Shown: positions 6,557-21,099 of the stretch, one piece after another | Layout of the letters: each line of letters begins with the position of its first letter | Numbering within the stretch: the first letter of the stretch is position 1 | From: a virus | Length of the DNA stretch: 64,000 nt | Virus record (IMG/VR): IMGVR_UViG_3300046318_000165 | Location: 26,752 to 90,751 of that record | Direction: 5' to 3' (one strand) | Program-made: the position numbers and the translations under genes | Notes under the pieces: generated by a model | What the model saw: the letters and a program-made list of their open reading frames with translations, nothing else | Database searches by the model: none | What the model was told of the DNA's origin: nothing

Positions 6557-6615
6557 TGGTTACTCCTATTCAGTTGTATGTCTATTCTAGCATTACCCTC
6601 CGACAAATACAACCC

Positions 6616-6999
6616 CTAGAACAAAGTATTTATCCAACGGTAGTCGTCTATATCTTCTGGGACCGAATCAACATGCGGTAGTGAATCAAGAAGAGCTTTT
6701 ACCCTATCAGGAATAGTCTTAGCAATGTTACGGAATGAGTCCAGGGTTATAAAGAAATCATCTCCCCATTCCTTTTCAGGAAAGTCTGGTGCAAGCATCC
6801 TAGTCTCTGCTAGGGTTAGAGTAAAAGATTCAAGATAGGACCTTGTTGATACCCATTCTCCGTCTACCCTATACACTGAAGGCTGGATAGTAAAGACATC
6901 TGCCCATTCATTCTCACCAGTCTCTTCATTAGTGCCTAGGTCCCTATAGAAAACGTTGAGGTCATACTCTTTTTCAATCTGATCGGTTTTAGTTGTCAT
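6616..6999 (-). CDS. acidic hypothetical protein
   Basis: start moved to MTTKTDQ. Confidence 0.6.
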   Translation of the reverse strand: MTTKTDQIEKEYDLNVFYRDLGTNEETGENEWADVFTIQPSVYRVDGEWVSTRSYLESFTLTLAETRMLAPDFPEKEWGDDFFITLDSFRNIAKTIPDRVKALLDSLPHVDSVPEDIDDYRWINTLF

Positions 7000-7174
7000 A
7001 CCACTTCTCTCCTTCGTGTTCTTCACATTCACAACAGTTTACGCAATACCCCTCATCATAGGGGCAAGCAAATGTATCCATAATCCATTCGCCCTCATGG
7101 GTATACTCTTTACCACAATCAAGACAAATAATATTATTTAGTATGTCAGCCAACAATCTTTGCGTCCTCTCCAT
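6989..7174 (-). CDS. Cys-rich hypothetical protein
   Basis: multiple CxxC motifs. Confidence 0.5.
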   Translation of the reverse strand: MERTQRLLADILNNIICLDCGKEYTHEGEWIMDTFACPYDEGYCVNCCECEEHEGEKWYDN

Positions 7175-7574
7175 AAAATGCTTTTAGGTCTTCTACAGTG
7201 TCAATGGGGATATGGATATAGCCCTCACGCTCTTCACACTCATTACAGTATACAGGGTTGTCCCAGTCAAAGTCAAGAGTTTCTAGGCAATCACATTGAC
7301 GCTCTGCCCAAGTAGGGACTTCAATGTCTTCTTCCCAAGGAACATTGGTAATATAGTAATGAATACGATTGACATAGTGATAACCAGAAACAATGTAACT
7401 TCCCTCATCACCGTCTACTTCAGTCCAAATGTTATGCTCATCCTGTAGTTTGACATACTCCTTTTCGTCACCGTATGTTTCGTAGGGTAGTTCAAGACCA
7501 TTACTTTGATTCCTAAGATAATTAGGCATAGGCTGAAACTTCTCAACCCAAGCGTCATAAGTATAAATAGTCAT
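7146..7574 (-). CDS. acidic hypothetical protein
   Basis: ETYG.E...IWT.VDGD...GYHYVNR pattern. Confidence 0.65.
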   Translation of the reverse strand: MTIYTYDAWVEKFQPMPNYLRNQSNGLELPYETYGDEKEYVKLQDEHNIWTEVDGDEGSYIVSGYHYVNRIHYYITNVPWEEDIEVPTWAERQCDCLETLDFDWDNPVYCNECEEREGYIHIPIDTVEDLKAFYGEDAKIVG

Positions 7575-7886
7575 TAGTTATTTTCCAATCCTGCTACACC
7601 ATAGGGGTCAATGTGTTCTTGTAACTTATTATAAATAGCGTTGATAAAGATGTCATTATCTCTATAAGTTATTTCGGCAAGGTAGCCATTCAAAACTTCT
7701 AACTCAATTTCTGTTAGTTCAATAGTATAAGTATTCATTATCCCTCGCTAACTTCAACATAACAATCACTAATGATACTATCGGCAATATCTTCTACATC
7801 ATAGTCCTCACCAAAATCGGCATAGAACTCAATGTAGTGACCAGTTGGTGAATGAACAATAGTTATCTTCTTTTCCATCATTACTC

Positions 7887-8405
7887 CTAAAAGTGGAAAT
7901 CAACAGGGACAAGATACCAGTCTACACCCTCAGTGGGTAGTTTGTCAAGCATATGCTTAGTATTGGTAGAAGAATGTTCAGCGTCAAAATACTTTGAATT
8001 GAAATCCCAGTTACCCTGTAGCATATCAATTGCTTTACTCAGGGGGTATAGGTCAAAAGAATAATCAATATTTCCAGTATATATATCTAACTTATCTTTG
8101 ATAGAATCAAAATCAATACGACTAACATAATTCTTGAACTCATTTAGTCTAGACTCAATACACGAATCAATTTTCGCAGCAAATATTTCAGGGTCTTTAG
8201 CATAAGAGATAATCATATTAGAAGAAGAACTATAAGGGTCTTGCTCTGGGTTCCAACGACCGCCACCGATAACAAACCAATCATACCAAGATGAACCTGG
8301 GTTTAGTTCGTTATTTAGAAAACTCTCAACATACTCCATTGCTTCCTGCTCTGGGTCGTCTAGTCCGTCTTCTACCTTTATAGCAATCCATTGTAAAGTG
8401 TGCAT
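7887..8405 (-). CDS. hypothetical protein
   Basis: real start MHTLQW after RBS GAAAGGAA; WYDWFVIGGGRW...VPVDFHF. Confidence 0.7.
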   Translation of the reverse strand: MHTLQWIAIKVEDGLDDPEQEAMEYVESFLNNELNPGSSWYDWFVIGGGRWNPEQDPYSSSSNMIISYAKDPEIFAAKIDSCIESRLNEFKNYVSRIDFDSIKDKLDIYTGNIDYSFDLYPLSKAIDMLQGNWDFNSKYFDAEHSSTNTKHMLDKLPTEGVDWYLVPVDFHF

Positions 8406-8532
8406 TTGATTTCCTTTCGATGTTTCAAGTATACTGCCTACCACCGACATTCGTAAAACCTGGGAAAAAGCTGATCTATCGTAATTCTTTATTTGTGACT
8501 AATTATATTATGTAAGATAGGTCGGGCTTTCC

Positions 8533-8697
8533 CTACTCCTCCATTCTTTTCAAACTTGCTTTCAAAATCCCTAGCACGATTCTTGACGGTATCAAAGGCA
8601 AATCCTCATTCTTCAAAAACCCATCAATCATTCCATCAACTAGACTAATAGCATTGTCATAGCCCATAGTGTAGGACTTCAATTCATCATTGGTCAT
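8533..8697 (-). CDS. hypothetical protein
   Basis: RBS GGAG; start MTNDE. Confidence 0.5.
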   Translation of the reverse strand: MTNDELKSYTMGYDNAISLVDGMIDGFLKNEDLPLIPSRIVLGILKASLKRMEE

Positions 8698-9496
8698 TTC
8701 TTTGCTCCCAAGCAACCCATACAGAAAAACTTTAGTAATGCGTCAGCAGGGTTAGTGCTGGTAGTCTCACATTTGTCACACTTGTAAATAGTTTCTTTAT
8801 TCATTATCTTCCACCTCAAAATCCCATTGTGCGTTAGTTTCAAAATCTTCAAAGTCCTCAGCAATAAAGTCGTTTATCAACTCCAGAGCCTTTTCTCTAC
8901 TCTCTGCCTCAACAGGGACTTCATAGTATTTCATTAGTTTTGCTTGAACAAGATACTTATTCATCTTCTAGTTCCATTCCTGCTACTTCATACTCTTCCC
9001 AGAGATTTACGATTACTTCATTATCAATCTTTTCCAACTCACCCATCAGTGACCAGAACAGGGTTTGCCAGTTAGTATCATTCATCTTCTTCATCTTCCT
9101 CTAGGGCTTCAACCTCAATAGAATCAACTTCAGCAGTGTATGGATAGTTTTCATAGAGCCAGCCCATTTCCTCTGCTTCGGCTTCGCTGTCTGCCTCAAC
9201 TTCAAAATAGTATTCAACAGTGGTAGTAATAAAATACTTACTCATTGACCATAACCTTTCTTAGTTCATCATCACTTAGTCTATTTATTGTATCAAGACC
9301 CTCCGACATTATCAGGTCCAAAAGCCTACGGTATTCTTCAATCATTACTAACCGTGCTTTCTATAATAAGCATCGCAGGAAGACTTCTTGTGACCAATCT
9401 TTTTGGCGGAAGACTTCCAAACCCTTCCACATTCACGACAAGCATAAATGTCATACTCTTCACCCTTGTGCTTACGCACCTCAACATTTCGTTCCA

Positions 9497-9712
9497 TTAG
9501 TCCTCCTCTGAGTAGTAAAGTTCTAGTGGCACACCAATCATTCCTGCTACTGATTGATAAGCAGAAATAAGACCACTAAGATAATCGTGGAAACCATCCA
9601 AATCATTTTCATCATAACCTTTCAACTCTTCTTGATAGCCAGTGATTCTATCAACCAAGGCGGTAGCAAGAGATGTCATTGATACATAATCAGCATTAGG
9701 GTCAAGATTCAT
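9497..9712 (-). CDS. acidic hypothetical protein
   Basis: RBS GGAG. Confidence 0.6.
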   Translation of the reverse strand: MNLDPNADYVSMTSLATALVDRITGYQEELKGYDENDLDGFHDYLSGLISAYQSVAGMIGVPLELYYSEED

Positions 9713-19788: not shown

Positions 19789-19881
19789 TTATTGATTTGT
19801 AGTTTTAGTTTATCCTATGTCACCGACATTTACACGTCTACTTGGTAACTTTTTGATAACATTTTCTTTTTAGTTTTTTTG

Positions 19882-19983
19882 TGAGAAGTGTTGGAATCGA
19901 ACCAACCTTTTCCAGAGCCTCTTTATAAGTAAAGCTTTGTTATAAGCAATCTGTCTGTCCCCAAACCATTTGGGCTACTTCCC
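19882..19983 (-). ncRNA. tRNA-like RNA with enlarged anticodon domain, copy 2
   Basis: acceptor GGGAAGT/ACTTCTC+A (compensatory change relative to copy 1); T-arm GTTGG-TTCGATT-CCAAC; own promoter 20002-20023. Confidence 0.75.
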
Positions 19984-20084
19984 TTATTTATTTATATCTA
20001 TATATTATCATTCATTACCGACATTTGTCAAGCTAAACACGCCAATTTAGGGAAATTTATTTGATCGTTATAAAGCTGTAACAT

Positions 20085-20100
20085 TCGAATGTTTGTTCGA
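20085..20100. promoter_or_regulatory. candidate LexA (SOS) box
   Basis: TCGAAT-GTTT-GTTCGA, one mismatch; same position relative to GCCCGACC as the 19474 box. Confidence 0.65.
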
Positions 20101-20221
20101 AAATGCCCGACCCCGCTTTCGGGCGTGTCGCCCTCCAGGTGGCTGGGGTAGTTACTGACTCATTCCAAACATTACAATACCGATCAAAACTAAGATTAGT
20201 CCAATAGTCATTAGCTTATCC

Positions 20222-20380
20222 CTACTTTACCAAGGTAGCAGACGAAGCACGAAATACAATACCCAACTTCTTTTGGGCAAAGGTGATAGCAGGATGTCCA
20301 TACCAAGCAGACACAACTACCTTGTGAGTAACCCCACTGTAGTCGATTCCTGTTACTAGCCATTCTTTGTTCTTGTTCAT
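20222..20380 (-). CDS. hypothetical protein
   Basis: start moved to MNKNKE after RBS AAGGA. Confidence 0.6.
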   Translation of the reverse strand: MNKNKEWLVTGIDYSGVTHKVVVSAWYGHPAITFAQKKLGIVFRASSATLVK

Positions 20381-20464
20381 TTCAATTTCCTTTTCTTTGA
20401 TACTTCTATTATAGGCATAGCCTAAGACATTTGTCAAGTCTATTTGGTAACGGTTTGATAACGG

Positions 20465-20692
20465 TTACATGATGGGAAATAGTTCATAGAATAGGTGAGC
20501 ATGGTCACATTCACCGTCAAGGTTAGGCATACCATCGGAATCTAAGTAGCACTCAGAGTCACCACAAACTTTTGGGGTATAGGTTTCAAGTTCTTTTACT
20601 GTCATGGTAGTCATGCCAGAACAAGCGATACATACACACTTGTAGTCACCGTTCTCTAGTTGGAATCCACAACTTACGCAATACTTGAACAT
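20465..20692 (-). CDS. Cys-rich zinc-binding protein
   Basis: CVSC, CIAC; first gene of the promoter array. Confidence 0.65.
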   Translation of the reverse strand: MFKYCVSCGFQLENGDYKCVCIACSGMTTMTVKELETYTPKVCGDSECYLDSDGMPNLDGECDHAHLFYELFPIM

Positions 20693-21099
20693 TTCTTTTT
20701 CCTTTTCCTTGTTGATACAAGTCTATGTGATAGCACCGACAAACGCAAGTTAGATAGACATATTTTGGTAACAAGTTTATAACATCGTAGGGGGTGTGTG
20801 CTCACTATAAAAAGCTTGAAAAATGATCAAAAACCTGTATCATACATCAGTTTAAAATATTCAGATTTTGTCAAATTTGATTTTTTTCAGATTTTGCTGG
20901 ATATGATTATAACATTTTGATAACGATTTGATATACTTGGGGGTATTTAGTAATTAATCTGAGCTAAAATCCAAGTAATAATCATTACAGTCATAAAAAC
21001 AATTACTTCAAGCATATAAAAATGTCCTAACTACGAAATAGAAAGCCAAATCAAACAAAAACAGTGCGGTAGCACCACTTAAAACATATAAAAACTTGA

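Follow-up and report, generated by a model that had tools for sequence, protein, structure and literature searches.

In actinobacteria, the LexA-independent response to DNA damage has PafBC as its master activator. Its in vivo consensus from chromatin immunoprecipitation is tGTCgg(N10)tA(N3)T; the helix-turn-helix (HTH) domain of PafB contacts positions −23 to −28 and reads GTC through R46 and R50, sigma domain 4 is held by PafC, the promoters are without a −35 element, and mycobacterial RNA polymerase (RNAP) carrying SigA does not recognize them by itself (PMC8635444). PafBC is activated by single-stranded DNA (ssDNA) of at least 6 nt (PMC11804915). We describe here an array of 31 promoters resembling this class in an uncultured freshwater phage, IMG/VR record IMGVR_UViG_3300046318_000165. 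The 90,751-bp record is estimated to be 84% complete, and bases 26752–90751, a stretch of 64,000 nt referred to below as the window, were analyzed in detail; positions are those of the window unless stated otherwise. We put at about 0.6 the probability that the 31 promoters are read by the PafBC of the host in the manner of "sigma adaptation", a reading that is based on sequence comparison.

The nearest phage parallel is the middle promoter of T4, which depends on MotA and AsiA ("sigma appropriation"). There too the −35 element has given way to an activator box, which lies about 12 nt ahead of an ordinary −10 element, and the promoter marks a class of phage genes that the host holoenzyme reads. 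The two systems differ in that the T4 MotA box is TGCTT at −30, that a search of the lake phage for the DNA-binding domain of MotA found none, and that the activator of the lake phage would be an ssDNA-gated host protein.

An array of PafBC-type promoters

The pattern TGTCGG-N10-TAnnnT occurs in 26 exact copies in the window, all of them on the minus strand between positions 6584 and 20741, whereas 0.24 copies are expected in shuffled sequence and the maximum in 100 shuffles was 2. TAnnnT follows at exactly 10 nt downstream in 26 of the 27 minus-strand TGTCGG words, and the plus strand has only two such words. A weight matrix built from the 26 exact sites and scanned over the whole record added five one-base variants of the hexamer (upper coordinates 20429, 19015, 18826, 17609 and 17273), bringing the array to 31 sites; beyond these the scan found nothing comparable on either strand, and no additional exact copy lies in the part of the record outside the window. 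These results agree with an earlier note on this DNA, made from its letters, which had reported 26 exact copies and about five single-site variants, all on the minus strand and with an invariant 10-nt spacer. The motif scan of the full genome and of related phages that the same note had proposed confined the array to 6584–20741 and showed it to be conserved in relatives (see below).

The site consensus is ttgtaAATGTCGGTGGt-N6-TAtAaT, with aaTGTC(G/A)Gtgg as the −26 element and usually no −35 element. In 28 of the 31 sites no more than four of six positions match TTGACA at a spacing of 17 or 18 nt, which we count as absence of a −35 element; the other three carry a perfect TTGACA at 18 nt. An AAAGGA-type ribosome-binding site and a start codon follow 22–31 nt after the −10 element in 24 sites, and two sites are leaderless, with ATG 6 nt after it. 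The claim that the sites directly precede a ribosome-binding site and ATG, a leaderless ATG or an RNA gene thus holds for 26 of 31 as far as start codons are concerned, while its RNA genes amount to two atypical tRNA-like elements.

The sites therefore have the sequence and the invariant 10-nt spacer of the PafBC class (26 exact copies and five one-base variants) as well as its hybrid character, since 28 of 31 are without a −35 element. They share with PafBC (RecA-NDp) promoters (PMC8635444, PMC11804915) the 22-nt architecture, the distance from −26 to −10, a −35 element that is usually missing, starts that are often leaderless or follow a short leader, and the actinobacterial setting. They differ in lying on a lytic-type phage genome and not on a chromosome, in their density (31 sites in 15 kb versus a handful per streamlined host-like genome), in heading small genes of unknown function instead of repair genes, and in having more uniform flanks (AAATGTCGGTGGT) with TTGACA in a few sites. 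The assignment to the RecA-NDp motif made in the earlier note is borne out in sequence, spacing and missing −35 element as described in PMC8635444; its other half, recognition by PafBC, is a prediction from that likeness. The literature searched, which did not cover one 2025 paper on PafBC and mycobacteriophage resistance, contained no description of PafBC-class phage promoters.

A second promoter class of the phage provides a contrast. The extended −10 sequence TGnTATA(A/C)T is present in 28 copies, where 9.3 would be expected. The plus strand has 23 of the copies, which stand before lysis, structural and replication genes; the use of this class by the structural and replication genes had been claimed beforehand. 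The extended −10 sites (e.g., at 23060, 23540, 34113 and 61422) often follow a hairpin and have an ATG 6–12 nt away, in leaderless style.

Related phages, candidate hosts and candidate factors

Judged from its genes, the uncultured phage is a freshwater actinophage, because it encodes WhiB, a portal and a protease like those of Stanwilliamsviridae (42–49% identical to Streptomyces phages of that family), GP88 and DUF932, and because the stretch is present in freshwater metagenomes from several studies, none of the sequencing runs listed with it being of RNA; these genes also uphold the actinobacterial setting first assumed for it. GP88 occurs almost only in Mycobacterium and Streptomyces phages, and DUF932 mostly in phages of Mycobacterium, Streptomyces, Microbacterium, Arthrobacter and Gordonia. 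The leaderless starts and extended −10 promoters were also counted toward an actinobacterial host, and the G+C content of the window, about 38%, is no contradiction to it. Genes for siphovirus-type portal, protease, capsid and tape-measure proteins lie in the window. The remaining part of the record (bases 1–26750) has, besides the WhiB gene, genes for RecA, a fragment of the Pol III alpha subunit, ThyX, a ferritin/Dps-like protein and PstS, and an HTH protein is also encoded by the phage. The same part of the record has an M23 peptidase gene and, on the minus strand, five clustered genes resembling those of glycosyltransferases. A collection of cultured phages contained no near-identical DNA match.

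When IMG/VR was scanned with AATGTCGGTGGT-N6-TAnnnT, more than 118 stretches matched, about 65 of which (35–47% G+C) carry 4–17 co-oriented copies of TGTCRG-N10-TAnnnT. In 41 related records the exact motif occurs 329 times versus nine times for a reversed control. The motif-bearing records form one phage family, having DUF932 (50–82% identity) and GP88 (50–78%) in common. Upstream of the orthologous DUF932, GP88 and 146-amino-acid genes, whose proteins are 26–82% identical, the DNA has diverged and only aaTGTCnn-N10-TAnnnT is kept, a footprint that shows selection on the box and on its register with the −10 element. Across the sites of the relatives GTC is invariant and positions 5 and 6 of the hexamer drift, which matches the reading of GTC by PafB through R46 and R50. 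A few orthologous positions have TTGACA-N17/18-(G/C)ATAAT instead of the box or together with it; the two designs are thus interchangeable, which is what one would expect if both were read by the same sigma factor. An apparent terminal repeat in one complete relative (G043) was set aside; it is only 127 bp long and probably an assembly overlap. The 85-kb contig CAZCDW010000001.1, binned in a metagenome-assembled genome (MAG) labeled Bifidobacterium, is a phage of this family with GP88, DUF932 and at least six motif copies, and is probably mis-binned.

Homologous blocks are found in the terminal repeats of Streptomyces Stanwilliamsviridae and in the right arm of L5-type phages, with which the lake phage shares DUF932 (55%) and GP88 (46–56%); as in the lake phage, the Streptomyces block has one promoter per small gene. 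In Streptomyces phage Karimac (NC_048724.1, 545–9258) the block lies near the left genome end, and each gene has one TTGnnn-N17-TAGACT promoter, with GCCGCCCCGG ahead of each; unlike the lake-phage promoters, these have a −35 element and no TGTC box. Since the layout is the same in a block without the TGTC box, the arrangement of one promoter per small gene is, on this comparison, ancestral, and the promoter class is what changed in the freshwater family. Karimac GP88 and DUF932 each have matches at two places in a record, as a terminal repeat would produce. The Karimac block also has GP88, DUF945, Lsr2-like and ParB-like genes.

The check for pafBC proposed for the predicted host was run on candidate lineages, in which the genes are present along with the motif. 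A 1.3-Mb freshwater MAG assigned to "Micrococcales" (G001), a candidate lineage, has tandem pafB and pafC genes matching PDB 6SJ9 and 7P5X, with the Pfam domains HTH_PafC, WYL and WCX and with both GTC-reading arginines kept. This genome gave the best match to the phage PstS among 301 genomes of the class (42% identity versus at most 38% for the others); the sample included three unpublished genomes (G052, G077 and G081), on which no claim rests. A PafB homologue is present in 18 of 21 genomes of 1.0–1.5 Mb from the same class. The stringent pattern ATGTCRGWG-N8-TAnnnT occurs 38 times in these 21 genomes versus six times for the reversed control, or about 1.8 times per streamlined host-like genome versus 17 times in the 64-kb window, and with the box so rare in host-like chromosomes we rejected the idea of a generic host promoter type. 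Some of the ten sites inspected in three genomes precede carD, a gene for a DnaQ-like exonuclease (leaderless) and a ChiZ-like LysM gene that has a LexA box as well. In complete actinobacterial genomes of 1.3–1.4 Mb, a small LysM-domain gene has a LexA box, TCGAACAAGTGTTCG, next to its PafBC-type box; the site is conserved in several genomes, and the arrangement recalls that of Rv2719c of Mycobacterium tuberculosis.

We examined the phages for a factor of their own. WYL domains were absent from all 42 records (the phage and 41 relatives, four of them complete). The phage record and the four complete relatives contained no HTH_PafC, Sigma70_r2 or MotCF domain, AsiA not being included in the search, and tblastn with PafB and PafC returned only noise in the phage genome and 118 related loci. 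The window had been noted to lack a WYL or sigma gene, with the advice to look for a WYL/HTH activator or sigma factor elsewhere; WYL, Sigma70_r2 and HTH_PafC were not found in the remainder of the record either. No RNAP was seen among the open reading frames (ORFs) scanned, RNAP families not having been searched directly, and a phage RNAP is considered unlikely also on account of the A-11/T-7 pattern, typical of a sigma-70 −10 element, that the sites retain.

Explanations for the array

According to the explanation that we favor, the PafB/PafC heterodimer of the host would adapt RNAP with the housekeeping sigma factor to the hybrid promoters of the phage, the PafB HTH domain reading GTC and PafC holding sigma domain 4. 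PafBC would do so only with ssDNA bound by its WYL domains, so that expression of the block would depend on ssDNA in the infected cell. Such ssDNA could come from DNA entry, from nuclease attack, or from replication or recombination of the phage, which has a RecA and a Pol III alpha of its own. About 31 very short units, which together contain about 50 small genes of host-takeover type, would be fired in this way, with transcription predicted, from the −10 element and from the start codons 6 or 22–31 nt downstream, to begin 6–7 nt after the −10 element, and the remaining phage genes would be served by the factor-independent extended −10 promoters. In T5- and SPO1-type phages the blocks in the terminal repeats belong to the early-expressed regions, as does the right arm in L5-type phages. 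By analogy with the Streptomyces phage terminal-repeat blocks and the L5-type right-arm blocks, and by that analogy only, the block may be expressed early as well.

A wider proposal can be built on this explanation: the family of 95–135-kb freshwater actinophages may have exchanged the −35 element of its host-takeover promoters for the PafBC −26 element and made the ssDNA alarm of the host its ignition, with 15–31 high-affinity boxes per copy soaking up PafBC during phage multiplication and blunting the repair and defense response that PafBC controls in the host. We regard this wider proposal as doubtful. That replicating phage DNA might titrate PafBC is conceivable, but as pure inference.

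Several observations weigh against recognition by host PafBC. The motif-bearing contigs all belong to one phage family with the same block genes, and an unrecognized family-specific phage factor could therefore explain the conservation equally well. The three cultured Streptomyces relatives have no motif enrichment, though their hosts are actinobacteria. Where a −35 element would lie, at 17-nt spacing, the weight matrix has a weak TTGtaa/TTGACA signal, which suggests that certain sites may also function with sigma alone. The best clue to the host is the PstS match, at only 42%. A PafBC motif was expected before recA in G001 and G002, but only a LexA-box-like site was found there, and the other motif-linked genes of these two genomes are a mixed set with no clear repair regulon. 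Finally, placing about 50 genes under a stress-gated activator would be risky for a lytic phage unless infection reliably yields ssDNA.

The first of these points leads to the strongest competing explanation, an activator of an unrecognized family encoded by the phage, which would be made from a sigma-only promoter, act in the manner of T4 MotA/AsiA and bind the TGTC box, the likeness to PafBC being mimicry or coincidence. Such a factor would have been co-inherited with the block in the single family, and it could be hidden in a genome in which most ORFs are without known function and which encodes WhiB and an HTH protein; the lack of box enrichment in the three Streptomyces relatives would also be in keeping with it. 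Units suited to making it are present at the head of the block, namely the one behind the consensus promoter at 20408–20437 and the one behind the extended −10 element before the DUF6171 ORF (21298–21498), yet the ORFs behind these sigma-only promoters have no recognizable DNA-binding domain. None of the domain and similarity searches described above recovered a candidate, and there is no reason why an unrelated factor should match the PafBC core, its spacing and the missing −35 element. Moreover, the extended box AAATGTCGGTGGT-N6-TAnAAT stands before chromosomal leaderless genes in distant actinobacteria. Genome contigs scanned with a 17.5-base pattern gave 32 matches, about the chance number, of which the actinobacterial ones alone were informative; in high-GC actinobacteria the same 24-mer lies 6 nt before leaderless WYL genes (Spirillospora and Actinomadura) and, in Microlunatus, 6 nt before a leaderless gene of the DUF222/13E12 type. 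We consider a phage activator unlikely.

One could also envisage that the holoenzyme with the housekeeping sigma factor reads the sites alone, the TGTCGGTGG box in the spacer acting in cis to make binding stronger, for example by way of RbpA, CarD or sigma region 3. The weak TTGtaa at 17-nt spacing, the perfect TTGACA in three sites and the interchange with TTGACA-N17/18-(G/C)ATAAT at orthologous sites of the relatives would fit this idea. However, the −35 region is poor in 28 of the 31 sites, the factor-independent design used by this phage for its plus-strand genes, TGnTATAAT, is absent from them, the box is rare in host-like chromosomes, and mycobacterial RNAP-SigA by itself does not recognize such promoters (PMC8635444), all of which makes sigma alone very improbable. 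Less probable still is an asymmetric operator through which a phage repressor or shut-off protein would silence the block at a given stage, for although about 30 co-oriented asymmetric sites in one block recall the L5 stoperators, and GP88 is shared between the block and the right arm of L5-type phages, an operator needs no single-nucleotide register with the −10 element (the spacing is invariant in the 31 sites and in the family), no repressor or integrase was recognized in the phage, and the box matches a known activator site.

The small-gene block and the meaning of the array

The features of the block and the contrasting promoter class are collected in the table.

Features of the window (−10, distance measured from the −10 element)
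Feature	Positions	Strand	Remarks
Leftward block	6000..20741	-	about 50–60 small ORFs in 31 short transcription units, PafBC-type hybrid promoter heading each; pattern and weight-matrix scans
Promoter, exact	20720..20741	-	ATG 27 nt after −10, 75-aa (amino acid) ORF
Site, variant TGTCTT	20408..20437	-	upper coordinate 20429; also perfect TTGACA-N18-TATAAT sigma-70-type promoter
Promoter, exact	20002..20023	-	TTGACA at −35 too; ahead of tRNA-like RNA 1
Promoter, exact	19807..19828	-	ahead of tRNA-like RNA 2
Promoter, exact	19373..19394	-	
Promoter, exact	19165..19186	-	
Promoter, variant TGTCGC	18994..19015	-	
Promoter, variant TGTCTG	18805..18826	-	weakest score
Promoter, exact	18484..18505	-	no ORF downstream
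Promoter, exact	18360..18381	-	
Promoter, exact	18134..18155	-	22-mer identical to that of site at 17915
Promoter, exact	17915..17936	-	22-mer identical to that of site at 18134
Promoter, variant TGTCAT	17588..17609	-	ahead of HNH endonuclease gene
Promoter, variant TGTCTG	17252..17273	-	
Promoter, exact	16939..16960	-	
Promoter, exact	16710..16731	-	
Promoter, exact	16047..16068	-	leaderless, ATG 6 nt after −10
Promoter, exact	15733..15754	-	
Promoter, exact	15018..15039	-	leaderless, ATG 6 nt after −10
Promoter, exact	14857..14878	-	
Promoter, exact	14580..14601	-	
Promoter, exact	14131..14152	-	ahead of GP88 gene
Promoter, exact	13267..13288	-	
Promoter, exact	12895..12916	-	ahead of 146-aa gene conserved across the phage family
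Promoter, exact	12192..12213	-	
Promoter, exact	11796..11817	-	
Promoter, exact	11098..11119	-	TTGACA at −35 too; ahead of DUF932 gene
Promoter, exact	9877..9898	-	
Promoter, exact	9287..9308	-	
Promoter, exact	8428..8449	-	
Promoter, exact	6584..6605	-	last of block
DUF932 gene	10035..11066	-	343 aa
GP88-family gene	13386..14105	-	239 aa, PF17338
HNH endonuclease gene	17275..17562	-	small
tRNA-like RNA 1	19881..19983	-	acceptor stem 7 bp, T arm canonical, anticodon arm enlarged
tRNA-like RNA 2	19685..19788	-	paralogue of RNA 1, compensatory stem changes
Contrast class	20929..61430	+	23 TGnTATA(A/C)T extended −10 promoters ahead of lysis, structural and replication genes

The protein of the DUF932 gene has orthologues at 50–82% identity in related lake phages and at 55% in the terminal repeats of Streptomyces phages. 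The two paralogous tRNA-like RNAs, about 103 nt long and each behind its own PafBC-type promoter, have a GGTTCGATTCC T arm and an anticodon arm extended by about 30 nt. At default settings ARAGORN found no tRNA in the window, and it called these RNAs (Leu-gag) only with introns allowed and a lowered threshold; Rfam gave nothing at 5500–22500, and no homologue of either RNA was present among the related phage loci compared. Downstream of the promoter with upper coordinate 18505, an 83-nt stretch (18395–18477, minus strand) forms, when folded, a long hairpin with a U run at its end (z = −2.8); it may represent a small RNA or serve as an attenuator. In the spacers of the block a GC-rich element of 32 nt is present three times on the minus strand (18618–18649, 19494–19525 and 20105–20136), two of which adjoin LexA-box-like palindromes (19474–19489 and 20085–20100) with one mismatch to TCGAAC-N4-GTTCGA. 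The count of LexA-box-like sites is by itself not significant (3 versus 0.96 expected).

WYL regulators are increasingly linked to phage defense. If host PafBC does read the array, a lytic phage would time a class of its genes by the ssDNA sensor of its host and not by an activator or sigma factor of its own, and the host would thereby supply the counterpart of what T4 provides with MotA/AsiA. Strong and compact PafBC-responsive promoters would then be at hand as a natural set, and there would be a hint as to why PafBC status affects phage sensitivity. Titration of a stress regulator by a phage would also become a possibility to consider.

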